A DNA stretch of 64,000 nucleotides from Capsulimonadaceae bacterium (GCA_965215505.1 OZ244065.1:5248001-5312000), one strand, 5' to 3'. Numbered from the stretch's first letter, positions 21,611 to 55,317 are shown. Program-made: numbers and translations. Notes: generated by a model not told the origin, from the letters alone.

Positions 21611-21613
21611 GGT

Positions 21614-36961: not shown

Positions 36962-37079
36962 TGCCGGCCGGTGATGTCAGCTGGCGCGGGAACCGGAGGC
37001 CTCTCCCCCGTGTTCCTCTGATAGCGAGAGATGATGTGGCCTCCGCAGCCGGCGGACTGGCCGACCAAGGAGAAGAAGC

Positions 37080-37406: not shown

Positions 37407-37465
37407 ACGACCGACCCCAAGCCATTTTCTAAATAAACCACTGTCTATATCAAGGAGAAGTTCGA

Positions 37466-37789
37466 ATGAGTAATGCCAGCGCCGTCACGACGGCCAATTT
37501 CGAGAAGGAAGTCTTGCAGTCCGATGTCCCCGTCCTCGTGGATTTCTGGGCACCCTGGTGCCCCCCCTGCCGTGCCATCGGCCCCACCCTGGATGCCCTC
37601 GCCGATGAGTACCAGGGCAAGGCCAAAGTAGTCAAGGTGGACGTGGACGATGAGCCGGAAGTCGCCTCGCGCTACGGCGTCAGCAGCATCCCCGCACTGC
37701 TGCTGTTCAAGGGCGGCGAGCAGGTCGGCCAGCTCGTCGGCGCGCATCCGAAGACGAGCATCGCCAATCTTATCACGAACGCCCTCTAA
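37466..37789 (+). CDS. Thioredoxin paralog (WCPPC)
   Basis: VDFWAPWCPPC, SIPAL; RBS AAGGAG. Confidence 0.93.
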   Translation: MSNASAVTTANFEKEVLQSDVPVLVDFWAPWCPPCRAIGPTLDALADEYQGKAKVVKVDVDDEPEVASRYGVSSIPALLLFKGGEQVGQLVGAHPKTSIANLITNAL

Positions 37790-37850: not shown

Positions 37851-38690
37851 CTACCGGGATTGGGGCGGCGGCGGCTGCCCGAAGCCCTGGTTATGCACCA
37901 CCTCGCGGCTGTCATTGTCGCCCGTCGGCGGGTTCAGGACCTTGAACGGGTACACGCTGCGCCCGTCCTGATAGCCCGTCACGCCGTAGGTGGGGTAGGG
38001 GGCATCGCGCGTCACCGTCCACGCCGCCGGGTTGTCTTTGTCCTTTATGTCCCCGCCGCCCTTAAGGCTGCGGACATACGCCACCGCCGCCCACCTCTCG
38101 TTAGGCGTCAGCCAGTGCCGGAAGCCGGGCATCTTGCCCTGACCCATTGTGATATGCCAGAACATCGCCCCGTCCGAGATATGCTGCACCAGGGGCGCGG
38201 CCAGATCCGGCGGGTGGGGGACTAAGTACTGCCCCACCGTGCCGTAGCCGTACCCGCCTGGGTTGTGGCACTGTACGCACCGGTTGTAGAACAGCACCTG
38301 ACCCGACCGGACGACGTGCGGATCCTCCGGCAGTGGGCTTTTCAGGGCATCCACGGCCGCCGGGGCAGGCTCATACCGGGCGTTGTCGGAGAGGTTCGGC
38401 GGCGGCAGCGTCGGCTCCTTGGAAGGGAACTGGTTCAGGCGCACTCCCCCGCTGTACTTCGCCTCCGTATCGCCCGGCAGCTTCACCTGCGCGCCATACG
38501 CAATCGAGGCCACCGGCCGCGCGTCCGTCGGCAGGATGGCGTCGCCCGCCGAAACCGACTCCTGCGGCGGCGCGGCGCGGGGCGCGTCCAGCGGCGTATA
38601 GTTCGGCTGGCGGTACATCTGGTTGCCGCAGCCGGTCAGCGCGAGGAGGCCAAAAAGGCCGCCCGCGCTCTGTAACAGATTACTTCTCAT
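37851..38690 (-). CDS. actE: Alternative complex III monoheme cytochrome c lipoprotein
   Basis: Lipobox LTGC, M..QP, single CVQCH, GKMPG axial Met. Confidence 0.8.
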   Translation of the reverse strand: MRSNLLQSAGGLFGLLALTGCGNQMYRQPNYTPLDAPRAAPPQESVSAGDAILPTDARPVASIAYGAQVKLPGDTEAKYSGGVRLNQFPSKEPTLPPPNLSDNARYEPAPAAVDALKSPLPEDPHVVRSGQVLFYNRCVQCHNPGGYGYGTVGQYLVPHPPDLAAPLVQHISDGAMFWHITMGQGKMPGFRHWLTPNERWAAVAYVRSLKGGGDIKDKDNPAAWTVTRDAPYPTYGVTGYQDGRSVYPFKVLNPPTGDNDSREVVHNQGFGQPPPPQSR

Positions 38691-38715
38691 GCAACTACAT
38701 TCTAATCACGCGCTT

Positions 38716-39243
38716 TCATTCAAAGCTGCGCGCGTCGTGCCGAACATCCGTCGCGCCGGCCTCACGGCAGAAGCGCTCCGCCCGCGTGGCCTGCTTCTCG
38801 TCGGCGCAGTGGGCGGCGATGCCGATCAGGCCCTCCGAGATGCGCGGGTCATAGACCTTTGCCCGCCAGTTCGGCAGGCGCATCTCGAACAGGGCCGCGA
38901 AGAAGGCCGCCGAGAGTGCGAACAGCATCATCATCTCGTAGGCAATGATGCCGGTCGGCGGGACCGGCGAGATCGGCTTGCCGCCCACCCGGATCAGGTA
39001 GAGCTGGGCGGACCCCGCCGCCAGGGCGATCCCGAACCCGATCCCGACCAGCGCGAACAGAATGGTGATCAGGGGCAGCCGGATCGGCGACCTATCCGCC
39101 TCCAGCACGCCCTCGGGAAAAGGCACCGAGGACAGCACCATCAGGTCCTCCGAGGCCGCGCCCCCTTCGCTCCGCAGCCGGTTGAGCGCGTTCGCCGCCT
39201 GGTCGATCTCCTCGAACAGTCCGAGTACCGTTGTTTCAGCCAT
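38716..39243 (-). CDS. actD: Alternative complex III subunit D (DUF3341)
   Basis: VLGLF, SSVPF, VGGKP, IIAYEMMMLF, YDPRISEG. Confidence 0.85.
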   Translation of the reverse strand: MAETTVLGLFEEIDQAANALNRLRSEGGAASEDLMVLSSVPFPEGVLEADRSPIRLPLITILFALVGIGFGIALAAGSAQLYLIRVGGKPISPVPPTGIIAYEMMMLFALSAAFFAALFEMRLPNWRAKVYDPRISEGLIGIAAHCADEKQATRAERFCREAGATDVRHDARSFE

Positions 39244-39321
39244 CGTTTCCAACTTCTAAGGGAATGTGTTTGCATTACCCAAAAGGGACGGCCGTCAAAC
39301 CCGTCACTCCCCCAAGATCGG

Positions 39322-41118
39322 CTATTCCAGTGTGTGTCCGACGCAGGTCCAGGAGAGGATGTCGTACTGGGTGGTGGTCGTCGGAAAAGCGGGTGGGGGG
39401 TTAGTCGCCAGGCGTCCGTCGTAGTGGCGCTCAGTGGAAAGGCCGCTCGTCAGCAGGCCCCCGGCGGACAGGGTGCCGAAGCCGCCGCCGTGTCTGACGA
39501 TGAAACTGCCGACCTGTCTGAACGTGCCCAGAGGCCGCGTCGTCACGCCAGTCGCGTCACAGGTGTTGAACGCCAGAATGGCCGCGTCAACCTCGACGGC
39601 GGTCAGCGGCAGGCTGTTCGAGTCCCGATCAACCACCTCGACCGTGTTGGAGATCAGGCCCAGCGTCCCCGCCTGCTGCGTCAGGATCGTGTTCAAAGGC
39701 TGCGTCAGCGGCAGGGAAAGGAGCGCGCTGTATTGGAGGCTGCCGTCAATGTTCATGTTCCTGCCGGCATCGGTTGCGATGGTCAGGTGGTTGCTGGGGA
39801 GGAGCGCGCCCAAAACCTGGTTGTCCAGGATCGTCCCGTGGAGGCCGCCGGATTTGGGGGCGGACTGGCTTCCGATGTTCCCATCACAGTAGATCACGCC
39901 ATTCCCGATGCCGACATAGAAGGTGATGAGGGGCAGCGCGAAGGACCGTGTGACGACCACCGTCGTCTGATTGAGCAGGCCGTTAAGCAGGACTGTGGTC
40001 GTGAATGGTCCCACGCCGTCCTGCTGCTGGATGCTGATGGATTGGACATTGCCCGCCCCGACCGCCAGCGTCATTTCCTGCACGTCGCCGTGGACGTAGA
40101 TGCCGCCGACCGTGGTGCCGCCGCTGATCCCGCTGGTGAGGACGCCGTTGAGCAGACTCGTGACCAGCCCGCCGCCCCCGCCGCTTGGGATAGTCACGCC
40201 GACCGCCGTTGGCGCGGGCGTTCCGGCAAGCGCCGCCAGTTTCTGCGGCGTGCTGTCGGCGGGGAAGGCGATCGTCGGCGTCCCGCAATGCACCGATGCC
40301 GCCCCGCCCGCAGCGAGGGAAGACCAGTCGGCCGTGGTGTGTGGACTCGTGGCGGCCGTGGGGGTGCTGAGGAACCAGTTGACATGGGTGCCGGACATGG
40401 TCACCGCGTCCGCCGCGCCGTCACTGAAGATCGGCTGGGGCGCGGCCGTCTTCCACAGGATGTTGTTCACGACGCCGCCCGGACTGCCGTCGGGGTTGGA
40501 GTTGTTGCAGTGGACCGGGCCGTCGAAGCCGGTCACGCCGCTGATCCAGTAAGCGTCCGGCGCGGACTGATCGGAAAAGTAGTTGTATTTGGCGAAGCTG
40601 ACCTGCTGGACCTCGGCCTCGACGGTCTGCACGGACGCCCCGCAGGTGCCTATCGCCTCGATCAGATACTTCTTCGGGGCCGACCCCGAATTGCCGCCGC
40701 CGGGGTAGACACGGATGCTGAACGTATGGGCGGCATCCGGGTAGCTCACGACCGCGCGCTGCGGGCTGCCGGCGAGGGATGCCCCCCAGAGGGTCGGCGC
40801 GAACGCCTGGGTCTGGGAAGGGGGCGCGGCCTGAGTGTGCAGCCACTGAAGCGTCAGTTCGACGCCCGAGGCGGCGAGTTCGGAGGCGGTCGTCGCCTGC
40901 GCGCGCGCCGCCGTCATCTGCAAGGAATTACCCGCCGTCGCCGCCCCACCGCCGCCGCTGGTGCCGGGGACCAGCGTGATCCCGATCAGCATCGCGGTCA
41001 TCAGCCCCAGCAGGACCAGCATCGTCAGGGCGAACGCCATGCCGCGACGCCGCCCCCGCCTAGTCGGAGCGCAGGGGCGTGTTCGTGGCTCCGTAGGTGG
41101 GCGTCGGGTTTGGCTCAT
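39322..41118 (-). CDS. PilX/GspK-like large minor pilin
   Basis: Basic leader RRRRG|MAFALTML with no Glu5; AASGVE, YLIEAIG, FDGPVHCN, YDGRL..NPPPAFP. Confidence 0.7.
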   Translation of the reverse strand: MSQTRRPPTEPRTRPCAPTRRGRRRGMAFALTMLVLLGLMTAMLIGITLVPGTSGGGGAATAGNSLQMTAARAQATTASELAASGVELTLQWLHTQAAPPSQTQAFAPTLWGASLAGSPQRAVVSYPDAAHTFSIRVYPGGGNSGSAPKKYLIEAIGTCGASVQTVEAEVQQVSFAKYNYFSDQSAPDAYWISGVTGFDGPVHCNNSNPDGSPGGVVNNILWKTAAPQPIFSDGAADAVTMSGTHVNWFLSTPTAATSPHTTADWSSLAAGGAASVHCGTPTIAFPADSTPQKLAALAGTPAPTAVGVTIPSGGGGGLVTSLLNGVLTSGISGGTTVGGIYVHGDVQEMTLAVGAGNVQSISIQQQDGVGPFTTTVLLNGLLNQTTVVVTRSFALPLITFYVGIGNGVIYCDGNIGSQSAPKSGGLHGTILDNQVLGALLPSNHLTIATDAGRNMNIDGSLQYSALLSLPLTQPLNTILTQQAGTLGLISNTVEVVDRDSNSLPLTAVEVDAAILAFNTCDATGVTTRPLGTFRQVGSFIVRHGGGFGTLSAGGLLTSGLSTERHYDGRLATNPPPAFPTTTTQYDILSWTCVGHTLE

Positions 41119-41887
41119 GGTCTAGGTTCAGTTCATGGTCCCGCGACAGGACGCACTTGCCGATGACGGGCACCTGCTGGCTCCCCGCCGTCATCTCGCT
41201 GGTCTGGGTGCCGCGCAGGGACGAGTAGTAGGCGCTGACGAGGCGGACTTCCAGTTGGTAGGGGAACTGTTGCGCGCCGGACGAGTCGGCGGGCCGCTGG
41301 AACTGGACGGCGCCGGCCGAGGCCGGGCTGAGGCTGGCGAGCAGCGCCCTGCCGACCGGCTGCCCCAACTCCGCCCCACTCAGCCAGAGATAGCCGCCGG
41401 ATGCGGCGTTAGGAGTGCCGTCGCTGTTCGCGCGGTAGATCCATAAGACGCTGGCGGGCGAGGACGTTGCGGAGCGGTCGTAGGCGGGGGGCATGAGGAG
41501 ACTCCCGTTCCCGCCCGCCACCGAGGGGGAACCCGAGGCCGGGGAGACCAGCTCAACGCCCGTGTCCAGCAGGGAGCCGCCCGCAGTCGTCTGGAACGCG
41601 CCGGGCGCCTGCCCCCCCGGCGAGGTCCACCAGGCGTCCTCCGGCAGAGCCAGCCAGTGTGCCTCTTCGACGTCTCTGGCGATGTGCTGCACCGCGTTGG
41701 CCGCGTCGGTCGTGGCGTAACACGCGGCCCCGCTCTGGACGGTGATCTGCGCCGAGGCGACATAAAGGTCAACCGCCCCTAGGAAAAGCAGCAGCGTGAG
41801 CGAACCGCCGACGATGACCTCGACGAGCGTGAACCCTCGCCGCGCTCTCCCCTGCTGCCTTTTCCCCTGCTGTCTGTTCCTAGTCAT
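41060..41887 (-). CDS. Type IV minor pilin (PilW-like)
   Basis: RRG|FTLVEVIV class III signal peptide. Confidence 0.8.
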   Translation of the reverse strand: MTRNRQQGKRQQGRARRGFTLVEVIVGGSLTLLLFLGAVDLYVASAQITVQSGAACYATTDAANAVQHIARDVEEAHWLALPEDAWWTSPGGQAPGAFQTTAGGSLLDTGVELVSPASGSPSVAGGNGSLLMPPAYDRSATSSPASVLWIYRANSDGTPNAASGGYLWLSGAELGQPVGRALLASLSPASAGAVQFQRPADSSGAQQFPYQLEVRLVSAYYSSLRGTQTSEMTAGSQQVPVIGKCVLSRDHELNLDHEPNPTPTYGATNTPLRSD

Positions 41888-41912
41888 GTTCTCGCTGCTC
41901 CCTCGCACCCGG

Positions 41913-42446
41913 TCAGGAGTGCGGCATCTGGATGACCAGGCCGGTGAGGCTGTAACCGCCTGCGGCGGCCGCACCCGCAGGCCAGTGCAGGGCCACCGTC
42001 ACGCTGTCCACCGTGCCTGCCGGGACGGTCGCGTTCAGCGAGGCGTAGTCGGTGACGGTCAGTGTGGCCGTTGTCCCCTGGAGGAACACCCCCTGCCCGC
42101 TGGAATCCGCCAGCAGGCGGTCGCAGGCGGTGAAGTTCGCCGTGTAGGGCACCCCGAGACTCGTACTCGTGCCCGCATCAATGATGCCGAGCGAGGCCAG
42201 TGTCGCCGGGCTTTGCAGCGCTTGGAAGCCGGCCCCGCGAATCTGCATCAGTTTATGCTGCGCCAGGGCCGACGCCTGCGCGTAGTGGCCGCTCACGCGC
42301 GCCGACAGCAATGTCATGGGTAGCACAGCGGCGAAGAGCAGGCCCATCATCACGAAGATGCCCAGCGCGAACACCGCCTCGAAGAGCGTGAATCCGCGCC
42401 CGGAAGCATCGCGAGACCTGTGCGGTGTTCGTGTGATTGTTCTCAT
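41913..42446 (-). CDS. Type IV minor pilin (PilV-like)
   Basis: GRG|FTLFEAVFAL; ASALAQHKLMQIR; VTVALHW. Confidence 0.8.
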   Translation of the reverse strand: MRTITRTPHRSRDASGRGFTLFEAVFALGIFVMMGLLFAAVLPMTLLSARVSGHYAQASALAQHKLMQIRGAGFQALQSPATLASLGIIDAGTSTSLGVPYTANFTACDRLLADSSGQGVFLQGTTATLTVTDYASLNATVPAGTVDSVTVALHWPAGAAAAGGYSLTGLVIQMPHS

Positions 42447-42455
42447 CCATCATCA

Positions 42456-42543
42456 TTATCGCGCCTCGGCGCGGTTTCTTTAGGGCTGCCGGCTTGCTGG
42501 AGTGCCCGAATGCTCTACAGTGGCCCGGCATTTTTGCCGATAC
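42456..42543. promoter_or_regulatory. Divergent sigma-28-like promoters
   Basis: Minus strand TAAA-N15-CGCGATAA (42482-42456); plus strand TACA-N16-GCCGATAC (42516-42543). Confidence 0.5.
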
Positions 42544-42574
42544 TCTCACGAGACGCATGGCACCCCCGGTCGCG

Positions 42575-42623
42575 GAAAGTTGGTGCAGAAGTTAATGCAG
42601 AAAGTTGATGCAGGAAGTCAATG
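42575..42623 (+). repeat. Imperfect 12-13-bp tandem repeat (3.5 copies) before the kinase start
   Basis: AAAGTTGGTGCAG / AAGTTAATGCAG / AAAGTTGATGCAG / GAAGTCAATG. Confidence 0.75.
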
Positions 42624-45600
42624 ACGAGCGATACCCCTGACGCTTCCAAAGAGGCCTACCGCCTGAACGCGCTCTGCCAACTCCAGATCCTAGACAGCGC
42701 GCGGGAGCAGGAGTATGATGACCTGGTCGAGATCGCCGCCGCCATCTGCGGGACGCCCGTCGCTCTGATCACGCTGCTGGACGAGAACCGCCAGTGGTTC
42801 AAAGCCAGCGTCGGCGTGTCCATGACGCAGACGGCGCGGAGCGACTCCTTCTGTAACCACGCGATCTCCCAGACCGAGCTGTTCGTCGTCCCCGACCTCG
42901 CCGCCGACGCGCGCTTCGCAGGAAACCCGTTCGTCGCCGGCGAGCCGCATGTACGCTTTTACGCCGGGATGCCGCTGATCACCCCGGAAGGCCACGCGTT
43001 GGGGACGCTCTGCGTCCTCGACGTCGTTCCTCGCGAACTGACCCCGACGCAGAAACGCACCTTACAGGCCCTGGGCCGTCAGGTGATCAGCCTGCTGGAA
43101 CTGCGGCGCAGCGTTGTACGCATGGAACGGAACATGGCCGAGCGCGCGCATGTGCAGGCCGCCCTCCGGGAAAGCGAGGCGCGGCTGCGTGAAACCGACG
43201 CGGCCCTCCAGTTCGCCTGCAAAGCGGGGCGGATAGGCCTCTGGGAGAGCAATCTGGAATCGGGCAAGACGACTTGGTCCGCCGGCAATGCGCGGCTGTT
43301 CGGGATGGAATTGGAAGACTTCGACGGTTCCCCGGAGATGACGCTCGGGCGCGTCCATCCCGATGACCGTGCCCTCCTTAAGCGCGAAAGCGCTCTCGCG
43401 GTCCTGAACCTCACGCCCTTGAAACTGGAACTGCGCGCGCTGCACCCGGACGGGACCATCCGCTGGATTCTGCTCAGCGCGGAGGTCGTCACGGATGAGT
43501 CCGGACGCCCCCTTCGGTTGAGCGGTTCGGCAACGGACATCACCGAGCGCAGGGAAGCGGAGGAAGCGCGCGGGCGGAGCGAGGAGTGGCTGCGGACGGT
43601 GGTCGCGGGGGCACCGCTGGTCCTGTTCTCTCTGGATGCCGCCGGGAGGTTTACGGTCTCTGAGGGGAAGGGCCTGGAGCGGATCGGGATGCTGTCCGGA
43701 CAAGTAGTGGGGCAATCCGCTTACGATTTGTATGCCGGTTTCCCGGAAGTTCTGGGGCATCTGGAGCGCGCCTACGACGGCGAGGCATTCAATGTGCGGG
43801 CAGACATTGGTGCCCTGACGTTTGAAACCTGGTACTCCCCGGTGTTCGGAGAGGACGGCCACGTCGCCGGCGTGATCGGCGTTGCGTGTGACATCACCGA
43901 AAGCCGTAATGCCGAGCGAATGCTGCGTAACAGCGAGGCCCGGTTCCAGGCATTCATGGATAACAGCCCGACGATGGCTTATGTCAAAGACGATGAAGGC
44001 CGCTATGTGTACTGCAATGACGCTTTCGATCGTCTGCATCAGTTGCCTTCGGGCGAGTGCCTCGGGAAAACGGCCCTGGATCTATGGCCCGGTGCCGTGG
44101 GGGAAAAACTGCACACGGACACGCTGGACACGCTGGCCCAGGACCGCCTCACCGAGACCGTCGCCGTGATCCCGAGGCGCGGGGGCGGTTCCCAGCACCT
44201 GCTGACGTTCCGGTTCACCTTCCAGGACAGCGCCGGATCGGCATTCGTGGGGTGTATCGCGGTGGATGTCTCCGAGCAGGTGCGGGCAGAGAGGCAGTGG
44301 GAGGACACGCAGCAGCAGTTGGAAGAGACGCTGTCGCAGTTGAACGCCATCCTGGAAGCGACGGTGGATGGCCTTTTGGTCCTCGGCAACCAGGGCAGCC
44401 AGACGCGGGTCTTGCGCGCCAGTGGCACCTTCGATGAGATGTGGCACATCCCGGAAGAACTGACCGGGGGCAAGGACGCCGCCGGGCATCTTGCGTTTGT
44501 CGCCGGTCAGGTCACTGACCCCGATGCCTTCAGAGCCAGGGCGTTTTATCTGAACACGCACTTTGAAGAGGCCAGCTTTGACACCCTGAACCTCAAGGAC
44601 GGGCGAATTTTCGAGCGGTATTCGCGTCCGCTGCTCATCCAGGGGGCCTTCGCGGGGCGCGTCTATAGTTTCCGGGACGTCACCCAGCAGGAGCAGAGCC
44701 GGCAGGACCTGATCCGCGCGAAGAACCACGCGCTGGCCTCCGCCCAGGCCAAATCCGAGTTCCTCGCCAACATGAGCCATGAGATACGCACGCCGATGAA
44801 CGGCATCCTAGGCATGACCGACCTTCTGCTGGCGACGCCGCTGCTGCCGCAGCAGAGGCACCAAGCCGTGACCGTCAAGAACAGCGCCAACAGCCTGCTG
44901 ACGATCGTGAACGACATCCTCGACTTCAGCAAGATTGAGGCCGGCAAGCTGATTCTAGAGGCGGTGCCGTTCAGCATCCCCCAGGTTATGCGGGAAGTGA
45001 AAGACCTCCTCGGCCCGCGCGCGGAAGAAAAGAACGTCGCCCTCCTCTGCTCCCTGCCGCCGGACTTCCCGTCGGCCGTGTGCGGCGATGCGGCGCGGCT
45101 GCGCCAGATACTCACGAATCTGGTCGGCAACGCCCTGAAGTTCACCGAGCGCGGCCAGGTGGTCATGGAGGCGCGCGTGCTGCGGGAGACACCCACCCAC
45201 GTCGAGTTCCGTCTGTCCGTGCGCGACACCGGAATCGGCATCGCCAAAGACCGGCAGACGGCCATCTTCGACAGTTTCACACAGGAGGACGGCAGCATCA
45301 CCCGCCGCTACGGCGGGACCGGGCTGGGCCTGGCGATCTGCCTGCGGCTGACGGACCTCATGGCGGGGCGCATCGGGCTGGAAAGCGAACCCGGATGGGG
45401 CAGCGAGTTCTGGCTGACCGTGACTTTGGAAAAGACGACCGCAGTGCTGGACGAAGCGGCGGCCGCCCCTTCGACCGAAACGGAGCCGCTGGGGCTGCGC
45501 GTCCTGTTGGTGGAGGACAACATCATCAACCAGGAAGTGGCCTGCGGCTTCCTGGAGATGTGGGGCTGTATCGTGGATGTCGCCGACAACGGCTGGAAGG

Positions 45601-46322
45601 CCTGCCTGGCCGTCCGCGCGAAGACGTATGACTTGGCCTTGATGGACGTCCAGATGCCCGAGATGGATGGCCGCCAGGCGACCGCGGATATCCGTGGGCG
45701 CGAGCGCGGGACGGCGCGGCGCCTGCCGATCATCGCCATGACGGCCCACAACATGCAGGGCGACCGCGAACAGTGCCTCGCCTGCGGCATGGACGACTAC
45801 GTCTCCAAGCCGGTCGACCCGAAACAACTGCTGGCCGCCCTCAAGCGCTGGGGCGGCCCCGCCCTGGGCGGGGCGGTCCCGCCTGCCCCGGAAGTTCCGC
45901 CCGCCCCGACAGTCATTCCGGCTCCGGAGCCTCCGCCGGCCCCGGAAAGGCTGCCGGAAGGCCTGCCGGTGCTGGACATCGAGCGCCTGCACAAGAGCTG
46001 TGCGGGCAAAGCGAAGCTGGAACGGAGGATCATGACGGAGACCCTGCGGCTGACCCCGCAGATCCTGGACCGTCTGCGCGCGGCGGTCGGCGCGGCGGAC
46101 GCCGACCCGACCCGGTTCGAGGCACACACCCTCAAAGGCAGCAGCCGCACCCTCGGCGCGGAGGCGCTGGGGAACGCCGCGTCCCTCCTGGAAGAGGCAG
46201 CAAAGGCGGGCGATCTGGCCGACGCGCCCGCACTGCTGGGCCGGATACAGGCGGACTGGACGGCACTGAGCGCGCGTCTCGAGGATTGCCTGACCCGCGA
46301 ACCCTGGAAAGACGCCCTATGA
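42621..46322 (+). CDS. Cytoplasmic hybrid sensor histidine kinase (GAF-PASx4-HisKA-HATPase-REC-HPt)
   Basis: RFYAGMPL (GAF), VHPDDR (PAS), [47 protein letters not shown]; no TM helices seen. Confidence 0.93.
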
Positions 46323-48454
46323 ACATACTCGTCGTCGAAGATGATCCCATCTCGGGGCTGGTGCTTACGACGGCATTGGAGGACCTCGGACACGTCATCA
46401 CCCTGCGCGGGAATGGGCAGGAGGCATGGTCTCTGCTCCAGTCAGACCACTTCGCCGTGGTCATCTCCGACTGGATGATGCCCCAGATGGACGGCCTGGA
46501 ACTGTGCCGCCACGTCCGGGGCCAGGCCGATTTCACCTACTTCATCCTGCTGACCGTCAAAGGCCTGCCTGAAGAGCGCCTGGAGGCGCTGGAGGCCGGC
46601 GCGGACGACTTCCTAATCAAGCCGCTCGACCCCGCCGAACTCGTGGCGCGCATGGAGGTAGCCCGGCGCATCCTGGCTTTGAAGGCGGAACTGAAGGTGA
46701 AGGCCGCGCCCGGCCCGATGCAGCGCCAGAACGTGGACCTCGGCGATGTCTTGGTTTCGCGCGGGGTCCTGAGCCGCTTACAGCTCGCACAGCTCGTGGA
46801 GCAGGAGCTGATCCCGCCGGCACAACTGGCGGCGGCCATCCTGGAACGAGGCTGGGTGGACGAAGAAAATATCACCCAGGCGCGCAGCCTGGTGATGGAC
46901 GTCCCCTATGTGGCGCTGGACGCGGAAACCATGGATCCCTTCGTCCTGTCGCTCGTCCCACATGAGATCGCGCAGTTTTATAAGCTGGTGCCGCTGTCGC
47001 TGATGGACGATGACCGGAAGCGGCTCCGGGTGGCGATGGCAAACCCCTGGAACATCGAAGCCATTGACTGGGTGCAGCGCGAGACGCGCCGCCCGGTCGA
47101 GCCGCTGCTCGCCAGCGACACGGCCATCGGGCGCGCGCTGAAGCGGGCCTACCAGGACGTCCAGGACGTGGTCCACGATGCGGTCATGAACAATGCCCTG
47201 TCGCAGGCCACCGTCGAGACGGTTTCCAAGGGCAACCTGATCGACACGGTGGACGCGCGCGAGCTGCTCCGCCAGAGTGACCAGGCCCCCATCATCCGGT
47301 TTGTCAACACGATGCTGGCCGATGCCGTCCATCGCGGGGCCTCCGACGTCCACATCGAGCCGGGCAAAGACGATTTTCAGATATTTTACCGGGTGGACGG
47401 GAAACTCCACCGCGTCCGCACCGTGACCGGGTCCTTCCTCGCCCCGGTGACCTCCCGGATGAAACTCATGGCCGAGATGGACATCGCCGAACGGCGGCTG
47501 CCCCAGGACGGACACGTCGCCCTGCGTATCGCCGAGAAAGTCGTGGACATGCGCCTTTCCACCCTGCCGACACAGTTCGGCGAGCGCGTGGTCATCCGCG
47601 TCCTGGACCGCTCGGTCGCCTGCCTCCAGCTCGAACAGCTCGGCCTGGCCCCGAACAACAAGCGTGCCGTGGCCCAGCTCATCCATAAGCCCCACGGCAT
47701 CGTCCTCGTCACCGGTCCGACCGGGAGCGGCAAAACGACCACGCTGTATGCCGCCCTGAACGCGCTGATCCAAGAGAGCCGGACCGGCCTGGGCCGCAAG
47801 AACATCCTGACCTGTGAGGACCCGATCGAGTACCAGATCGACGGCATCAGCCAGTCCAACGTCAACGAGCGGGCCGGGCTGACTTTCGCGCGCCAACTCC
47901 GCGCCATCCTGCGTCAAGATCCGGACGTCATCCTGATCGGGGAGATCCGGGACGCCGAGACGGCCGACATCGCCTTCCGCGCCGCCATGACCGGCCACCT
48001 GGTTCTGTCCACGCTGCACTGCAATGAGGCCGCCGGGGCCGTCAGCCGCCTGATGGATCTCGGCGTGGCTCCCTACCTGATCGCCTCATCACTCGCCGGC
48101 GTGGTCGCGCAGCGGCTCGTCCCGCGACTCTGCCTGCACTGCCGCCGCGCCTACACGCCGCCGCCCGACGAGCTGGCCGTGTTCGCCGCGCCGCCCGAGC
48201 GCCTCTACGCGCCCGTCGGCTGCGGCCAATGCCATGAGATAGGTCTGAAAGGGCGGATCGCGATCCACGAGGTCATGGTGTGCGACGACGACATCCAGGA
48301 GAGGATCATGGCCCACGAGGACACGCGCCTCATCCGCTCGGCGGCCCTGTCCGCAGGCATGACTCTGATGGTCAGCGACGGCCTGGAGAAAGTCAGCCAG
48401 GGCCTCGTGCAGCTCGAAGACGTCCTATGGCGGACAGGCCGCCTGGAAAAATGA
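46319..48454 (+). CDS. REC-domain-fused PilB/GspE family assembly ATPase
   Basis: ATGA overlap with the kinase; REC (VVEDD, SDWMMP, LLT, KP); [41 protein letters not shown], CxxC...CxxC. Confidence 0.92.
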
Positions 48455-48498
48455 CCGGGCGGCGTACCACCCGGTCATCCCCTCACCTAATCATCCCC

Positions 48499-49932
48499 TC
48501 ACCCAATCGTGTCTTCGCGCATCGTCACCGGGACGTCCGCGCCGCCGACGCGCTGGACGCCCTCGGCGTGTTCGCCCTCGCGGTACTCCCACATCGAGAC
48601 GATGGGGATGAACTTCGTCAGCAACGTGTACAGGAACCCGAACAGCCCGTAAGCCCCGACCGTGATCACGAGGTCCGGCCAGGCCGGCGTGTAGTTGCCC
48701 CAGGTCAACCGGTTCCGCGCGACGCTCGGCACGACCACCAGGATGCGCTCGGAGAACATGGCGATGTTGACCGCGACGCCGACGCCGAGCATCGCCCAGG
48801 GCGACCGCCGGACCTGCTTGAACAGCAGCGCGACCACCGGGACCAGGACCGCGAAGATCGGCAGCAGGATTAGCACCCACTTGTAGCCGTCGAATAGGAA
48901 GTGGACGTAGTTCTCGTGGTCCGGGTCGCGCGAGAACCAGTCCGACCAGACATCGCCGCCGAAGAAGTACGACCAGAACAGCGCGATGAACAGCAGGATC
49001 TTCCCGATGTTGTCGAAGTGCATCGGCAGGATGTACTGCTCCAGGTGGAACACCCAGCGCAGCAGGCACATGACCACGCACACCGCACCCGCTCCGGACA
49101 GCAGAGCGCCGCAGACGAAGTAGGGCGCGAAGATGTTGGAGTGCCACCCCGGCACGATGCTCATGCCGAAGTCCCAGCCGACGATGGTGTGTAGCGAGAC
49201 GAAGACAGGGATGATCATCACCGTCAGGATGCCGAACAGCACCTTCAGCCGCCGCCACTCCCGGTCGGTCCCGCGCCAGCCCAGAGCCAGGACCGTGTAA
49301 AGGGCGTTCCGCCAGCCGAAAGTCCGCTCGCGCAATGTCGCGAAGTCCGGGACGATCCCCGAGAACCAGAAAATGACGCTCGTAATCAAGTAGACGCCGA
49401 TGGCCGTCGCATCCCAGATCAGCGGGCTTTTGTAGTCCGGCCATAGCTGCCGCTCGTTCGGGAACGGGATGAAGTAGTAGAACAGCCAGTTCCGCCCGAT
49501 GTGCAGCAGCGGGAAGACGCCCGCCACGGCCAGCGCGCAGACGGTCAGAGTCTCCGCCAGCCGCGTCAAGGACCGCCGCCACCCCGCGTGGAGCAGCCGC
49601 AGGATCGCCGAGATCATCGTCCCGGACAGCGCGACGCCCGCCCAGAAGATGAAGTTCGCGATGTCCAGGCCCCAGTAGACCGGCCGGTCCATGCCCCAGA
49701 CGCCCATGCCCTGATAGAGCTGCCAGCCGAACGTCAGCACCGCCGCCCCGAGGATCGAGGCGAAGAAGCCCAGCACGGCCCACCAGCGCCAGTTCGTCTG
49801 GAGGACCGAGTTCGTCAGGTCCGAGTTCACCTGGGCGGCGGGCGGCACGGGCAGGTGGACCGCCGCCGTGTCCCGGAGCGGGATGTCTTGTGTCGTTAAA
49901 ACGCGGTCGATGTCACGTTCCAGCAGTCCCAT
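48499..49932 (-). CDS. actC: Alternative complex III quinol-binding NrfD-family subunit
   Basis: WGLDIANFIFW, RLAE, LHIGRNW, PNERQLWP, SPLIWD, SLHTIVGWDF, PGWHS. Confidence 0.88.
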   Translation of the reverse strand: MGLLERDIDRVLTTQDIPLRDTAAVHLPVPPAAQVNSDLTNSVLQTNWRWWAVLGFFASILGAAVLTFGWQLYQGMGVWGMDRPVYWGLDIANFIFWAGVALSGTMISAILRLLHAGWRRSLTRLAETLTVCALAVAGVFPLLHIGRNWLFYYFIPFPNERQLWPDYKSPLIWDATAIGVYLITSVIFWFSGIVPDFATLRERTFGWRNALYTVLALGWRGTDREWRRLKVLFGILTVMIIPVFVSLHTIVGWDFGMSIVPGWHSNIFAPYFVCGALLSGAGAVCVVMCLLRWVFHLEQYILPMHFDNIGKILLFIALFWSYFFGGDVWSDWFSRDPDHENYVHFLFDGYKWVLILLPIFAVLVPVVALLFKQVRRSPWAMLGVGVAVNIAMFSERILVVVPSVARNRLTWGNYTPAWPDLVITVGAYGLFGFLYTLLTKFIPIVSMWEYREGEHAEGVQRVGGADVPVTMREDTIG

Positions 49933-49969
49933 ACGTTTTCTCTTCTAATTCTCGTTTAGTGATTGTCTT

Positions 49970-51376
49970 CTAGTTCTCCCACATGGGAGGGTCTTCCACC
50001 ATCACCGTGACCGTCGTGTTCCCCATGCGCCGCTCCGCCGTGCGCGTCCGCTCCTTGCTCGTGCCCCACCAGGACATGATCGGGAAGTAGCGCGCGCCGA
50101 TCAGGAACGTCAGCACGAACATGGCCGTGATGCCGAAGAAGACGACGATGGCCGGGCCGGTCGGCAGCAGCGGCTCCATCCCGTACTTCGGCGCGAACGT
50201 CGGCACCGTGTCCAGATACCGCTGGCAGGTGATCCCGGTCAGGACCAGGATGCTGATGCCGCAGAGCGCCCAGCGCCGCTTGCGGTTCCGGGGGAACAGG
50301 TTGCCGAAGATCGGCGCGGCCGAGCAGCCCACCACCATCAGCCCGACCAGGATGGGGAACGCGACCGTGCGGCTCTGCTGGAGGTTCCACTCGCTCGGGA
50401 TGTGCCCGTACCAGGCCGTCAGGAAGTCGCAGATGCGGAAGTACGTCCAGATGAGCGCCAGGCCCACCATGAACTTGCCCAGGTTGTCGTACTGCGAGTC
50501 GGTGAAAAACCCGCGCCCGCGCAGCAGCCGGTTCACGACCGTCATCAGCAGCACGGCCATCGCCACCGCCCCCAGCACCGAGCCGAGCGTGTACAGCGGC
50601 GCGAAGATGCTCGAATCCCAGTCCCGCGCGGCGGCCAGTTGGAAGTCCCAGCCGAGAACGGTCTGCGACCCGACGAAAGAAGCGACGACGCCGATGACCA
50701 TGACGCCCTCCGCCCGCCGCAGGATGCGCCACTGGTAATCCGCCCCGACCCACTTGACTTTCCCCCAGCGTGTCACGCGGTCATAGAGCTTTTTCTCCTT
50801 GGAGCCGTCCGGGGCGCGGTCGCGCAGCATGGCGAAGTCCGGCAGGGCGGTCAGGAACAGCAGGAACCAGCCCGCCAGGAAGGCCGTGCCGACCATGACG
50901 GCGTCCCAGCCGAGCGGCGTAGATACGCGCCACACGTTGTCCCGGTACTCGGCGGCTCCCAGGGCATAAATCTCCCGCCGCGCGATCAGCATCAGTGGCA
51001 GCAGCAGCGGCCCCCACAGCCCGAACAGCGATCCCATGTCCAGCAGGCGGTTCAGCGGGTAGCGCCACGAGGCGTGGGACAGCCGCAGGATGGCGGACAA
51101 GGCCACCATCCCCTGCGACAGCCCGATCCAGAACAGCAGTGAAACCAGCGAGACGTGCCAGAAGCCGGGGTCGTTGCGGTGACCGCCGAACCAGCCATAC
51201 CCGTAGATGATAAACCCGGCCAGGATGACCAGCGCGAAACACGACCAGGTCGTGATCCGCAGCTTCGTCAGCCGGGACTTGTGCGGGTCCTCAAGCACCA
51301 GCCGCAGCGGCTCATAGGCGTTCGCATCCAGGGCGACCCCGCGCGGCGAGTTCAGAATGCTTTCTTCGTCAAACAT
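49970..51376 (-). CDS. actF: Second NrfD-family membrane subunit (ActF-like)
   Basis: Paralogous to actC (FWIGLSQG..ALSAILRL, LGWDF) but lacks the HxGR quinol-site His. Confidence 0.7.
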   Translation of the reverse strand: MFDEESILNSPRGVALDANAYEPLRLVLEDPHKSRLTKLRITTWSCFALVILAGFIIYGYGWFGGHRNDPGFWHVSLVSLLFWIGLSQGMVALSAILRLSHASWRYPLNRLLDMGSLFGLWGPLLLPLMLIARREIYALGAAEYRDNVWRVSTPLGWDAVMVGTAFLAGWFLLFLTALPDFAMLRDRAPDGSKEKKLYDRVTRWGKVKWVGADYQWRILRRAEGVMVIGVVASFVGSQTVLGWDFQLAAARDWDSSIFAPLYTLGSVLGAVAMAVLLMTVVNRLLRGRGFFTDSQYDNLGKFMVGLALIWTYFRICDFLTAWYGHIPSEWNLQQSRTVAFPILVGLMVVGCSAAPIFGNLFPRNRKRRWALCGISILVLTGITCQRYLDTVPTFAPKYGMEPLLPTGPAIVVFFGITAMFVLTFLIGARYFPIMSWWGTSKERTRTAERRMGNTTVTVMVEDPPMWEN

Positions 51377-51379
51377 GGC

Positions 51380-52243
51380 TTATGCCGCCGCCTCCGCGTC
51401 CGCCTCGTCCACGGACTTCAGATAGACGATCGCGGGCGAAGTCCCCAGCTCTTCCAGCAGCCGGAACCGCCGCGAGTCGTTCCACAGCTTGGCGACCGTC
51501 CAGTCCGTCTTCGGGTCGAACTCCGGCTCGCCCTGCGCCTTCGGGCGGGTCTTGACGTTCCCGAAGGTGATCGCCTTGGGCGGGCAGGCCTGCGCGCAGG
51601 CGACTGTGAATTCGTCCGGCTCCAGCTCCCGGTCCTCCGCCCCCGCCTTCTCCTCGGCCCTCCGGATGCGCTGGACGCAGAAGGTACACTTCTCCATCAC
51701 ACCCTTCTCGCGCACGGTCACGTCCGGGTTCAAGTGCTGGTTCAGCGGCTCGTCCCACGAATGCTCGAACCAGTTGAACACGCGGACGTCATACGGGCAG
51801 TTGTTGCCGCAGTAGCGCGTCCCCACGCACCGGTTATAGACCATCGCGTTCAATCCTTCGGGATTGTGATAGGTCGCATAGACCGGGCAGACCGGCTCGC
51901 ACGGCGCATTGTCGCAGTGCTGGCAGGGGATCGGCATGAACCGGGCCTTGACGTTCGGGTATTTGCCCTCCCAGTAACGCTCGACGCGAATCCATTGGTG
52001 CAGCCGGCCCTGATGCGCCTGCTGCTCGCCGACGACCGGGATGTTGTTCTCCATGGCGCAGGCCGCCTCGCAGGCGTGGCAGCCCGTGCAGCGGTCCAGG
52101 TCAATGACCATGCCCCACTTGCGCGTGACGCGGCCGTCTTCATAATCCTGAATATACGGGGAAGCCTTGCGCTCCGAGGGGCCTTCGCCCGAGCTGCTCG
52201 GACCGCCGTTGCGCTCTTTCCCGAGTTCTGTTCCGTCCGGCAT
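51380..52243 (-). CDS. ACIII iron-sulfur subunit (ActB2, 4Fe-4S dicluster)
   Basis: WGMVIDLDRCTGCHAC..AC..EN, CQHC..APCEPVCP, CVGTRYCGNNCPY, MEKCTFC. Confidence 0.92.
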   Translation of the reverse strand: MPDGTELGKERNGGPSSSGEGPSERKASPYIQDYEDGRVTRKWGMVIDLDRCTGCHACEAACAMENNIPVVGEQQAHQGRLHQWIRVERYWEGKYPNVKARFMPIPCQHCDNAPCEPVCPVYATYHNPEGLNAMVYNRCVGTRYCGNNCPYDVRVFNWFEHSWDEPLNQHLNPDVTVREKGVMEKCTFCVQRIRRAEEKAGAEDRELEPDEFTVACAQACPPKAITFGNVKTRPKAQGEPEFDPKTDWTVAKLWNDSRRFRLLEELGTSPAIVYLKSVDEADAEAAA

Positions 52244-52260
52244 TTTCGACTGTCTTTCTA

Positions 52261-54729
52261 CTACTCGGCCGCCCCCGGCTCGCCGGGGTTCTCCACGGTG
52301 CCGGGCGCGCGCTTGAACATGGAGCCGTCTGCCTGCGGAGCGCCCAGGACCTGGGCCGGGGCCTTCTTCCACTCCTTGGCGGTCGTGTGGATCAGGTGCT
52401 TGACCGCATCCGGCTCCCCGCCACCCGGCCGGTCCTGCGCCAGCACCAGCGTCGAGCCGTGCGGATCATAGCCGCTCTTGGCGTCCGCCACCTTCTTCAA
52501 GGTCACGGTCGTCGCGCCGTAAGCCAGCGCGCCCGTTTGGACGTCCGCCGTCGGGTCCAGGATGGCGAGCGGGTTCTGCCCGCGCCCCGCCGCGTTGCGC
52601 CCGTAGACCTCGTGCCCCTGCCCGATCGGCATGGCGACCGCTTGGGGGTTGATGCCGGGGTAGGGGACGGCGGGGACATCCACCGACCCGTGCGCCGTCG
52701 TCAGCCGCACGATGTCGCCGGTACGGATGCCCAGGGAGTGCGCGACCTCCATGTTGATCTCCACCCAGGAGTTCCAGACCGCCATCGTCATCGGGTCCGG
52801 GTTTTCCTGCATCCACCCCAGGTTGGCATGCCGCCCGTCGTGGTTGTAGATGTTCGGGTACAGATGCAGCGCGAACGCCCCCGCTCCCCTCTGACTCCCC
52901 TCTCCCGGCACGGGGGAGGGGCGGGGGGTGGGGGCAGTCACAGCCCGCGTCGCCGCGCCCGTCGTCCAAGCCCCGCCCGTGGCGAGCGCTCCCACCCACG
53001 CCGGGTCGTTCTCGGTCGTGTCGGCGGCGAGGTCGGCCTGCCCGATGCCCGCCCACGTCCGCCGCACGGCGGCCCGCGTGTCGGCGTCCGTCAGAGTCTT
53101 GCCCATCCGGCCCGCGATGTCGGTCAGCAGTCCGCCCAAGGGCCGCGTGTCCATCCACGGCACGAATACCTGGTGGTCCTGCACCTGCCCGTGCCCGCCG
53201 ACGAACTGCGGGTCAATGATCGGCTGCCGCAGGGTCGCCAGGTGTACCCCCGCCGGGATGACCGGCGGGACGTGGTCCCCCCAATCCTCCAGGAACGTCC
53301 GCGTCGGAAGGACGACATCGGCATGGGCCGTCGTCTCGTCCTCGAAGGGCGTCATCGCCGCGACAAACGACACCTTCGCCAAAGCCTCGGTGAACCCCGT
53401 CGCCGTCGGCAGCGTGAACACCGGGTTCGGCTGGCCCAAAATCAGCAGCGCACCGACTTGCCCAGATTGCATGGCCTGTACCAACTGCTGAATGCCCTTG
53501 AAGCCGACCCCGTCCGTGCCGGCGGCAGCGGGCGCGGCGATCCCCGCCGTCCCGAACCCCACACACCGGCTCCCCACCTGCGCGTTCAATGCTTCAACCG
53601 CCGTAAACGCCGCCGTCGCATTGGCCGAATTCATCAATCCGTTGCCGGGGACTGCCACCGCGCGCGCCCCAGCCGTCCGCATCGCGTCCGCGATGCTCTG
53701 GATCTGCACCTCGGTCAATCCGGACGCCGACGCTGCCTGAGCCATGGGAACGCCCGCGCCGCCCAGCGCAGCCCCGACCGCTGACGCCACGACCGCCTCC
53801 GTGCCCGGATTGCAAGGCAGCCACACGTCCGCCTTCGCCGCCGTCATGCTCATGCGCGGGCCGACATAGACAAACCGCCCGTGTTCGCCCTGCGCCCGGC
53901 GCGGCCCCTGCCGGAAGTCGCCGAACAGGCGGTTGTAATAGACGGGCGAAGGCCACGCCTCCAGGAAGTCGCCGCCGAACGAGACGATCAGGTCCGCCTC
54001 GTCGAGCTGATAGGCCGGCACCTGGTCGCGCCCGTAGACCGACCGCGAGGCAGCCCGCCAGGGGGCGTCGTCCAGCAGCGAATAGGTAAAGACAGTCGCG
54101 CCAATCACCCCGGCGAACTCCCGGATCAGACGCATCTGCGTCGGGGAATGGCCGAACTCCTGCGCGTCGGCCAAAATGGCGACCCGGCCCGACGCGCCTC
54201 GCAGGCCCTTAACGACCCGGCCCAGGGCCGGCTCCCACTCAGACTGTGTGGCCGAGACTTCGGTGATCTTCGCGCGACCGTCCGGCGGGTTGGCGTCCTT
54301 GTCCCGGTCCCGCGTGAACGTCGCGCCCCGCCGGTCGTGCAGGGCGGGGACGCGCAGCCGGTCCGGGTTGTACAGGTGCTGCAAGGCCGTCTGGCCCCGC
54401 GCACAGGAGCCGCCCCGGCTGACCGGGTGGGCGGGGTTGCCCTCGACTTTGAGCGCCCGCCCGCTCATCGTCCGGACCAGGAGGCCGCACCCCGCTGGAC
54501 ACATCTGGCAGACCGTGGCGAAGTACTGCGGCACGCCGTCCTGGTAGCCGTCGGGCTGGTTCAGGTAGGGGTAGACGCGGTTGTCATAGCCCCCGTACTG
54601 GCCGGTGACCTCCGCCCGGTAGAGGCCGGGGTTGTAGCGGCTCAGGGGACGGACTTCGCAGCCGGAGGCGGCGACCGCGCCGCCGACCACGGTGAGCTGT
54701 ATGAATTTGCGCCGACTGATCTCGGTCAT
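52261..54729 (-). CDS. ACIII molybdopterin-oxidoreductase-like subunit (ActB1)
   Basis: Tat signal SRRKFI and lipobox ASGC; CQMCPAGC, KVEGNP.HP, DGRHAN.GWMQE.PDP. Confidence 0.88.
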   Translation of the reverse strand: MTEISRRKFIQLTVVGGAVAASGCEVRPLSRYNPGLYRAEVTGQYGGYDNRVYPYLNQPDGYQDGVPQYFATVCQMCPAGCGLLVRTMSGRALKVEGNPAHPVSRGGSCARGQTALQHLYNPDRLRVPALHDRRGATFTRDRDKDANPPDGRAKITEVSATQSEWEPALGRVVKGLRGASGRVAILADAQEFGHSPTQMRLIREFAGVIGATVFTYSLLDDAPWRAASRSVYGRDQVPAYQLDEADLIVSFGGDFLEAWPSPVYYNRLFGDFRQGPRRAQGEHGRFVYVGPRMSMTAAKADVWLPCNPGTEAVVASAVGAALGGAGVPMAQAASASGLTEVQIQSIADAMRTAGARAVAVPGNGLMNSANATAAFTAVEALNAQVGSRCVGFGTAGIAAPAAAGTDGVGFKGIQQLVQAMQSGQVGALLILGQPNPVFTLPTATGFTEALAKVSFVAAMTPFEDETTAHADVVLPTRTFLEDWGDHVPPVIPAGVHLATLRQPIIDPQFVGGHGQVQDHQVFVPWMDTRPLGGLLTDIAGRMGKTLTDADTRAAVRRTWAGIGQADLAADTTENDPAWVGALATGGAWTTGAATRAVTAPTPRPSPVPGEGSQRGAGAFALHLYPNIYNHDGRHANLGWMQENPDPMTMAVWNSWVEINMEVAHSLGIRTGDIVRLTTAHGSVDVPAVPYPGINPQAVAMPIGQGHEVYGRNAAGRGQNPLAILDPTADVQTGALAYGATTVTLKKVADAKSGYDPHGSTLVLAQDRPGGGEPDAVKHLIHTTAKEWKKAPAQVLGAPQADGSMFKRAPGTVENPGEPGAAE
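52895..52934. repeat. REP-like palindrome located in frame within actB1
   Basis: CTCCCCTCTCCCG-gca-CGGGGGAGGGGCGGGGGGTGGGGG, near-identical to 4907-4948. Confidence 0.8.
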
Positions 54730-54756
54730 AGGGTGGAAGCTCTTCTAAAGACTCGC

Positions 54757-55317
54757 CTAATAGTGGCAGGTATAGCAGTCAACGGACGCCTGATACGGCT
54801 GGAACTTCTTCTCGTACTGCCGGTGGCAGGAGATGCACCAGCCCATGTTCATCTCAATCGGCTGGTAGACGACATACATGCTGCCGACGTTGCCGTGGCA
54901 GGTGGCGCAGGCGATGCCCGCGCCGACATGGGCGGAGTGGACGAAGTGGACGTAGCCCGGCTGCTGGTTGACCCGCACCCAGGGGACCGGCTGCTGGGCG
55001 ATGTAGTACTGCCGGATTCGCGCGATCTGCGGGTGCGTGATGGAGATGTTCTTGTGGCAGCCCCAGCAGACCTCGATGGGCGGGTAGTTGGCGTAGCGCG
55101 AAGCCGCCGCCGTCCAGTGGCAGTAGGCGCACGGAATGTGCAGCTCGTTGACGTGGACGCGGTGGTAGAACGCGACGGGCTGGGTCGGGCCGGGCGAGCC
55201 GATCCAGTTGGTCTTGCGCTCGTGCGTCGTTTCCGGCCAGAAGAAGGCGAGACTGAGCAGTGCCAGCAGGAGAACGCTGGCAACGGAAAAGAGGCGGATG
55301 AAAACGGGGCGGGTCAC
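54757..55317 (-). CDS. actA: ACIII pentaheme cytochrome c
   Basis: N-terminal TM; QPVAFYH..H; five CxxCH (CAYCH, CWGCH, CATCH, CISCH, CYTCH). Confidence 0.92.
   Translation of the reverse strand: MTRPVFIRLFSVASVLLLALLSLAFFWPETTHERKTNWIGSPGPTQPVAFYHRVHVNELHIPCAYCHWTAAASRYANYPPIEVCWGCHKNISITHPQIARIRQYYIAQQPVPWVRVNQQPGYVHFVHSAHVGAGIACATCHGNVGSMYVVYQPIEMNMGWCISCHRQYEKKFQPYQASVDCYTCHY

Follow-up and report, generated by a model that had tools for sequence, protein, structure and literature searches.

A 64,000-nucleotide stretch of DNA from a Capsulimonadaceae bacterium (GCA_965215505.1, OZ244065.1:5248001-5312000; hereafter the window) contains, at 39322-48454, a block in which the gene for a soluble hybrid histidine kinase with a terminal histidine phosphotransfer (HPt) domain overlaps that for a motor ATPase carrying a phospho-receiver (REC) domain at its N-terminus, with three pilin-like genes transcribed divergently from them (Table 1). 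The pairing of the kinase with this REC-fused, PilB-like ATPase is real and conserved. On balance we favour a reading of the genomes in which an accessory extension motor of type IV pili would be the end point of a four-step phosphorelay, which would take over the gating role of cyclic di-GMP (c-di-GMP); in this bacterial group, direct phosphorylation probably replaces the usual c-di-GMP signal as the switch of a spare pilus motor.

A conserved kinase and motor pair

Pfam assigns the kinase the order GAF-PAS(x3-4)-HisKA-HATPase_c-REC-HPt (GAF 29-155, HisKA 710-775, HATPase_c 822-937, REC 961-1074, HPt 1142-1218), and a motif check found the relay residues His720, Asp1009 and His1169 intact, i.e. 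the kinase has the domain series HisKA-HATPase-REC-HPt with the His, Asp and His residues by which unorthodox hybrid kinases are recognised. BarA, ArcB, TorS and EvgS are unorthodox hybrid kinases with such a His-Asp-His relay; the best NCBIfam likenesses of the kinase are to BarA, TorS and ArcB, every one below its cut-off (425 bits against the BarA model, cut-off 890), and the protein does not qualify as a BarA equivalog. The domain map begins with GAF/PAS and no membrane sensor was seen in it; the LOV motif NCRF, looked for in 16 kinases, was found in none. As the preliminary description of the window had it, the kinase gene ends in an HPt domain and overlaps the ATPase gene through an ATGA (46319-46322), and the gene content of the block includes no DNA-binding response regulator.

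The ATPase combines REC (residues 3-112), MshEN (194-280, PF05157) and T2SSE (319-703, PF00437, E 7.6e-135) domains. All of the receiver residues claimed for it are present (E7-D8-D9, D51, T79 and K101), giving the acidic pocket, Asp, Thr/Ser and Lys of a phospho-accepting receiver. The motor motifs are in place (Walker A at 466, Asp box at 500, Walker B at 535, His box at 559), as is a four-Cys zinc motif, CxxC...CxxC, from residue 605; both the T2SSE core and the N1/MshEN domain with four-Cys motif that mark PilB/GspE extension ATPases are thus found, the latter two being absent from PilT. The earlier suggestion that REC occupies the ATPase N-terminus holds in part: the domain is there, but it has been added in front of MshEN/N1 and does not replace it. 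A missed stop or frameshift as the source of the fusion was rejected, the gene being read in one frame, the fusion being shared by homologs (all three domains in at least 33 among the 120 homolog clusters listed) and the kinase/REC/MshEN junction being bridged by contigs from three of four sequencing runs, which come from independent studies.

Scores of 550.2 bits against the PilB equivalog model (TIGR02538, cut-off 675.65) and 550.6 bits against the GspE model (TIGR02533, cut-off 630.25) both lie below cut-off, and on these scores the ATPase is a member of the PilB/GspE family belonging to neither equivalog. An AlphaFold2 (AF2) model built from a 30-row alignment (predicted local distance difference test, pLDDT, 80.9; predicted template-modelling score, pTM, 0.48) gives REC as a (beta/alpha)5 fold at pLDDT about 90 whose fifth helix is long (105-128) and whose connections to the remaining domains are floppy; a fold search matched PilF, PilB and GspE cores, the top matches including Vibrio GspE. 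The ATPase is not encoded with pilT/pilC/pilD or pilMNOPQ. The rest of the machinery lies elsewhere in the genome, as had been anticipated for PilC, PilD, secretins and a major pilin: pilB-pilT-pilC-pilD-like genes, pilM/N/O-like genes with a secretin, a gsp operon and major-pilin-like genes were named by eye and BLAST, and secretins by profile. These core pilus operons carry their own motors; the ATPase is an accessory paralog. The genome also holds six other PilB/GspE-type ATPases (C1:1270209, 2115466, 3791962, 4838756, 5344217 and 6088015), that at C1:3791962 starting with a putative Clp N-terminal domain (assigned by eye), together with six PilT-like or related matches and 58 prepilin-like genes found by pattern.

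Linkage was surveyed across 71 genomes of the order, that of the window included, with REC-PilB loci compared in 17 relatives. A match spanning REC and MshEN occurs in 18 of the 71 genomes; beyond the order, 401 genomes sampled from the phylum (five candidates scored per genome) gave no full-length match, nor did a plasmid search. The source names of homologs (Capsulimonas, Armatimonadota) imply that the host belongs to the Armatimonadota. The predicted co-occurrence is borne out: the kinase adjoins REC-PilB in 15/17 relatives from two families, upstream of the motor in 14 and downstream in one, and translational coupling is retained in both families. The HPt His motif is present in 14 of these 15 kinases, the remaining contig ending early. 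The REC site is intact in 15/15 kinase-linked motors and altered in the two unlinked ones, of which G019 has an EGD acidic pocket and Lys>Arg, and G033 has Asp>Glu with loss of both the pocket and Lys; neither has a neighbouring kinase, and a kinase HPt query gave no match in either genome at E 1e-8. Within the genus, the close kinase ortholog and the fusion share the same seven of 23 relatives. A correlation between kinase and motor distances (rho 0.70-0.73) reflects kinship alone and is not used as evidence. The genome's called genes hold no other plausible REC of the DWxMP type: the pattern has two matches, the second being a 417-aa protein whose start is unlike a REC. Two genus genomes without the motor fusion encode stand-alone 123-aa HPt proteins akin to the kinase HPt (L219:1179-1550, L220:6149-6520).

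Table 1. Features of the kinase-motor-pilin block, its promoter-like sites and its surroundings (window coordinates)
Feature	Position	Strand	Size	Basis or remark
Soluble unorthodox hybrid histidine kinase	42621..46322	+	1233 aa	Pfam and motifs
REC-MshEN-PilB/GspE-family ATPase	46319..48454	+	711 aa	One frame; Pfam, motifs, model
Phospho-acceptor Asp51 of ATPase REC	codon 46469-46471	+		
PilV-like minor pilin	41913..42446	-	177 aa	Class III signal G-FTLFE
PilW-like minor pilin	41060..41887	-	275 aa	Class III signal G-FTLVE
PilX-like minor pilin, large C-terminal domain	39322..41118	-	598 aa	Leader G-MAFAL, lacking Glu5
Sigma28 (FliA/WhiG)-like promoter site facing kinase	42515..42543	+		CTACAG-N14-TGCCGATAC
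Weaker sigma28-like site facing pilV	42456..42483	-		CTAAAG-N13-GCGCGATAA
FliA/WhiG-family sigma factor, putative trans-acting reader of the sites	14263..15051	+		TIGR02479 above cut-off
actD and actE of alternative complex III	37851..39243	-		Pfam ActD, cytochrome c
Upstream operon part: actA, actB, FeS subunit, two NrfD-like subunits	48499..55317	-		Pfam
Hairpin, probable terminator, between convergent ATPase and nrfD-like genes	48447..48482			Minus-strand fold, -25.8 kcal/mol

Origin of the fusion and the c-di-GMP motif

Four trees of ATPase cores were built, the first a quick version and the other three with long-branch rows dropped. The REC motors and REC-less accessory PilBs form one clade (support 100/99 in the careful 15-row tree), separate from the pilB-pilT-pilC-pilD motor and from GspE; the REC-less sister PilB of the same genome, at C1:5344217, has a core 61% identical to that of the REC motor, and a single fusion origin within the order was not rejected by the approximately unbiased test (p-AU 0.20). 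This grouping bears on the possibility that the ATPase drives type II secretion in the role of GspE, with the three pilin-like proteins as pseudopilins. The near-identical GspE and PilB model scores, the Vibrio GspE fold match and the presence of a gsp operon would fit such a role; against it, the core falls among the PilB-type accessory motors, away from the genome's GspE, and the pilin trio is paralogous to the trio in the genome's main (major) pilin locus and gives no match to the gsp pseudopilins at E 1e-5. We regard a secretion role as very improbable, and the motor very likely serves type IV pili.

The MshEN c-di-GMP receptors are defined by a tandem 24-residue motif, RLGxxLVxxGxxxxxxLxxxLxxQ (PMC10333796, PMC5013675), which the REC motor lacks in intact form. 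Scored over the 12 key positions of the MshE motif (PMC5013675; three rows skipped), the motif, located at 140-192, is decayed, keeping 6/12 with the equivalents of Arg9, Gln32, Arg38, Gly40 and Gln61 lost; single changes of Arg9 or Gln32 in MshE cost up to fivefold (PMC5013675). By comparison, 11/12 positions are kept in all ten scored REC-less sisters, 9-10/12 in all seven scored genome copies from other genera and 4-7/12 in all seven scored copies from the genus, whilst the kinase-less copies in G019 and G033 keep 10/12. The REC motor described here is probably not a c-di-GMP receptor, and the loss of the motif within the genus points to its replacement by another activating input. A relative named by its source as Capsulimonas corticalis (P0019) retains most of both inputs.

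These counts also bear on the sense of the signal. Phosphate reaching Asp51 might act as a brake or tag, inhibiting, relocating or destabilising the motor or rendering it dominant-negative in mixed hexamers with the sister PilB. The kinase-less, REC-damaged copies, in which the ATPase is complete and 10/12 MshEN positions remain, would fit phosphate-free activity, and mixed rings are plausible because the sister cores are 61% identical. The Asp>Glu change of G033, on the other hand, would fit a locked-on form, weakly so as a single case with the rest of the site lost, and the decayed c-di-GMP motif of the genus copies suggests a replacement input that activates. A brake is in our judgement distinctly unlikely, and we lean slightly towards phosphorylation activating rather than inhibiting the motor.

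The source of the receiver was approached through a census of DWxMP-type RECs, for which 77 loci from other phyla were fetched. The motif is carried by 47 of these, 22 of them with an HPt-bearing open reading frame (ORF) within 6 kb; the outputs of the 47 comprise GGDEF (11), PP2C (8), HD-GYP (2), kinase (1) and other (25). A simple reading of the origin, which we infer from this census, is an output swap in which a cassette of kinase-HPt and DWxMP-type REC was fused onto PilB.

A profile search covering 1.8 billion representatives brought up a second REC-MshEN-PilB family (P0212; P0268-P0359), with all three domains in at least 90 among the 120 relatives of P0212 listed; some members are named Rubrobacteraceae by their sources and some carry extra MshEN repeats. 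This family groups with its own REC-less PilBs, and a single clade for both REC-PilB families was rejected (p-AU 2e-85); on this test of topology the Rubrobacter-type fusion arose independently. In a metagenome scan one of 80 loci was REC-fused, at L221:382-2921, where an HPt-like ORF overlaps the REC-PilB start; a genome-collection scan aimed at Rubrobacter-type loci returned REC matches from other phyla only.

The REC domain could instead be mainly a phosphate sink or a kinase dock, with a CheY, REC-GGDEF or REC-HD-GYP protein as the true output and the motor merely co-expressed. In favour of this are cheY and several GGDEF genes in the same sigma28-like predicted regulon (below) and the HPt relatives that stand alone in two motor-less genus genomes. 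It accounts poorly for the translational coupling retained in both families, for REC decay that tracks loss of the neighbouring kinase and for a second, independent fusion likewise having an HPt ORF at its start (one locus); we hold it improbable, and the relay likely ends on Asp51.

Pilin-like genes, promoter-like sites and chromosomal setting

As first described, the three pilin-like genes are transcribed away from the kinase, on the minus strand. By the class III signal peptide rule, Glu5 is present in the PilV- and PilW-like proteins and absent from the PilX-like one, and the signals G-FTLFE, G-FTLVE and G-MAFAL are retained in 7/7 genus relatives. The two pilin-like proteins scanned had no Pfam match; NCBIfam gave a weak ComGE match for the PilV-like protein and none for the PilW-like one. 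The first Atlas match of the PilX-like protein is annotated 'PilX N-terminal domain-containing' (score 0.97), PilX_N being found on 15-16% of the cluster members, and a single-sequence structure model of this protein reached pLDDT 34. The trio are therefore candidate PilV, PilW and PilX proteins, named from the signal motif, the Atlas lead and paralogy with the main pilin locus.

PilV-like orthologs, 59-63% identical, occupy the same place in 7/7 genus relatives. The view that the pilins form part of the module survives within the genus, where the trio is divergent from the kinase in all seven relatives, but not elsewhere (0/10), and since the link is confined to the genus, the conserved old unit is, by this comparison, the kinase with REC-PilB, joined by the pilins in one genus. 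The trio may accordingly be a passenger that shares a divergent promoter and feeds a common pilus pool, which would be compatible with the kinase-motor reading. Its lack of adjacency in the ten relatives outside the genus would fit this, as would PilX-like homologs in 53/71 genomes of the order, often in two or more copies and normally in the major-pilin locus; a close PilX subtype (55-61% identity) found only in the seven module-bearing genus relatives, others being at most 47% identical, and a block order kept at differing chromosomal sites speak against it. A passenger role seems to us nearly an even proposition, falling a little short, and that the linked pilins are the preferred tip set of the REC motor is plausible if somewhat doubtful.

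The major-pilin locus itself (C1:5392790-5399139; also L214-L218) carries one or two PilV/W/X trios and, between its pilin genes, a gene for a TMEM260-like O-mannosyltransferase; it is a candidate system for pilin glycosylation that the family conserves.

A conserved motif is found on each strand of the 174 bases that separate pilV from the kinase. A promoter matrix trained solely on seven genus relatives, whose own scores are partly circular, was applied to 5330 upstream regions of the genome; the kinase-facing site ranks 10/5330 and the pilV-facing site 176/5330, the latter score being reached by 1/200 shuffles. Outside the genus, a sigma28-like site at 2/200 shuffles or better is present in 4/9 loci. 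GGDEF genes make up five of the matrix top 20, as against 31/5330 genome-wide (p 7e-8). Products were scanned for 19 chosen genes from ranks 1-38 and for a PilX paralog; they include cheY, fliL, two methyl-accepting chemotaxis proteins, another PilB, a major-pilin-like gene and a kinase, alongside five or six unrelated genes. Genome-wide, the predicted regulon is rich in GGDEF/HD-GYP genes and contains pilins and two accessory PilBs besides the REC motor (C1:1270209 and the gene before C1:5344217), whereas the core pilB-pilT-pilC-pilD operon ranks only 481.

The consensus CTAAAG...TGCCGATAA agrees with the sigma28 consensus of PMC8325347; conserved sites of the TAAA-N15/16-GCCGATAA type and a fliA gene, the marks of a sigma28 regulon, are both found, the sites being predicted only. 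The FliA/WhiG sigma factor is the sole match above the TIGR02479 cut-off among the genome's 16; its gene stands alone, and the neighbours scanned are not flagellar. A sigma70 scan gave two sites, i.e. chance level, none of them at the block.

The 9.1-kb block interrupts an alternative complex III operon (37851-55317) between the second NrfD-like gene and actD, which adjoin in 29/29 relatives' loci; the block sits there in this species alone, none of the seven genus copies doing so. An assembly chimera was rejected, the left junction being bridged by contigs from 4/4 runs and the right by listed pieces from at least three of the four. As the block order is kept at different chromosomal sites among relatives, the block, judged from gene order, relocates as a unit. 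A mobile element was also rejected: the block has no recombinase gene, no end-to-end repeat is among the repeats listed, and its GC content at third codon positions (0.83-0.87, genome median 0.89) is not clearly foreign. The terminator scan did not list the hairpin at the right junction, beside which a 13-nt word is tandemly duplicated (48470-48500; four copies in the genome). At the left, actD-actE now lie 79 bases beyond pilX on its strand, and expression of the respiratory complex may have come to depend in part on a sigma28 promoter.

Two further parts of the window were noted. Region 35449-37789 encodes a double-domain 6-pyruvoyl tetrahydropterin synthase (Pfam), a GTP cyclohydrolase I-like protein (assigned by eye) and a tandem pair of thioredoxins with 61% identity. 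A small biosynthetic-looking cluster at 18822-24872 contains a ketoacyl synthase, a polyketide cyclase, an FAD oxidoreductase/halogenase-like gene, a methyltransferase and a class III aminotransferase.

Proposed mechanism and relation to known systems

In the mechanism that we propose, the GAF/PAS array would sense a cytoplasmic cue and phosphate would pass from His720 to Asp1009, His1169 and finally PilB Asp51. PleD and WspR are REC proteins with a long alpha5 helix in which phosphorylation pairs the REC/alpha5 arms; similar pairing here would free or position the N1 domain, and the hexamer would then engage the shared PilC/PilM platform, the step controlled by c-di-GMP in the sister motor. 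The motor would be produced in the sigma28 (motile) state and, in the genus, alongside an extra PilV/W/X priming set. The original proposal of the motor ATPase as the relay output is supported in part, by the kinase and motor genomics and the intact residues, but its architecture proves to be catalogued already and its pilin link confined to the genus.

Several observations weigh against this mechanism. The GspE and PilB models score the ATPase equally, both below cut-off, and the AF2 model, at its pTM, leaves the seating of REC on the motor unfixed. The counts of 15/17 linked and 2/2 altered reflect few events in relatives that are not independent, and G019 and G033 are only 91% and 87% complete, both holding other HPt proteins. 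The fusion is patchy (8/24 genus genomes), and the G056 copy (L031:11001-13140) is frameshifted in the N2 region, as a pseudogene or an assembly error; for these two reasons the fusion appears dispensable. At least two other phosphorelay routes able to use the HPt (CheY and other REC proteins) exist in the genome. The pilin trio is linked to the kinase and motor in none of the ten relatives outside the genus, one of whose contigs ends near the kinase start. As to the promoters, in only 3/8 genus copies do no more than 1/200 shuffles match the score of the site facing pilV (5-44 in the others), flagellin ranks only 361/5330, and wrong-spacing controls gave 6 and 3 sites against 17 at a score of at least 16.

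A broader version, which we think unlikely, is that bacteria have repeatedly rewired a pilus motor from c-di-GMP to a phosphorelay through fusion of one receiver type to a local PilB, with interchangeable sigma28-controlled motors each having its own input, the present motor building pili with a tip complex of its own, and motor swapping choosing the pilus type. Under it, copies would show a trade-off, with a live Asp and a dead c-di-GMP site in the genus, a dead Asp and a mostly kept c-di-GMP site in kinase-less copies, and both in the others.

Compared with BarA, ArcB, TorS and EvgS, the kinase likewise carries its His-Asp-His relay in one chain but is GAF/PAS-led and has as its partner an ATPase rather than a DNA-binding regulator. 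On the motor side, the preliminary description knew of no characterised system of this kind; this stands as far as function goes, since the literature yielded no functional study of a receiver-fused PilB (subscription papers lay outside the search, and census reviews may list the architecture), but the architecture itself had been catalogued: REC-MshEN-T2SSE is listed with Geobacter metallireducens Gmet_3473 (Wang et al. 2016, PMC5013675, Suppl. Table 4), for beta-, gamma- and delta-proteobacteria and with no reference in the table, whilst Armatimonadota do not occur in the supplements of that paper. Gmet_3473 resembles the present motor in domain order, the sole ground of the likeness, and differs from it in being catalogued there without kinase partner, promoter or function. 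The wiring of REC-PilB, its trade-off with the c-di-GMP site, its independent origins and its sigma28 link were not found in print and appear to be new.

N-terminal switching of PilB is described as poorly understood (PMC11656802). The known inputs being c-di-GMP and separate adaptor proteins, a native phospho-switch would offer a clean handle on the N-terminal state, with a natural comparison pair in one genome (REC motor and REC-less sister) and, in P0019, a named relative from a described species. The design, catalogued and seemingly widespread, is attractive to test more than astonishing.

The extension ATPases controlled by c-di-GMP, i.e. MshE of Vibrio cholerae, PilB of Myxococcus xanthus, PilF of Thermus and PilB2 of Clostridium perfringens (PMC5013675, PMC11656802), share with the present motor an MshEN/N1 domain before the PilB core and an N-terminal signal input; unlike them, it has a decayed c-di-GMP motif and a phospho-receiver fused in front. 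Sigma28-family (WhiG/FliA) control of pil and diguanylate cyclase/phosphodiesterase genes is described in Rubrobacter radiotolerans (PMC8325347, PMC12871210), with similar TAAA / GCCGATAA promoters before both gene classes; those promoters were mapped by transcription starts whereas ours are predicted, and the passages concerned contain neither PilB nor a receiver fusion. Control of PilB by c-di-GMP, PilZ/FimX, Pil-Chp and PdeK-PdeR is treated in a 2024 review, the pertinent passages of which contain neither a receiver-fused PilB nor the word 'receiver' (PMC11656802). The PatA/PATAN regulators of Synechocystis, which act on PilB1 in trans (bioRxiv 2021.06.11.447907), PilG/PilH and FimX resemble the system proposed here in bringing a two-component signal to PilB/PilC without transcription (bioRxiv 2021.06.11.447907, PMC11656802). 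They are, however, separate proteins, fed by CheA-like kinases or, in FimX, bearing a dead REC (same sources), whereas here a live REC lies within the motor itself and the predicted donor is a hybrid kinase with its own HPt domain.

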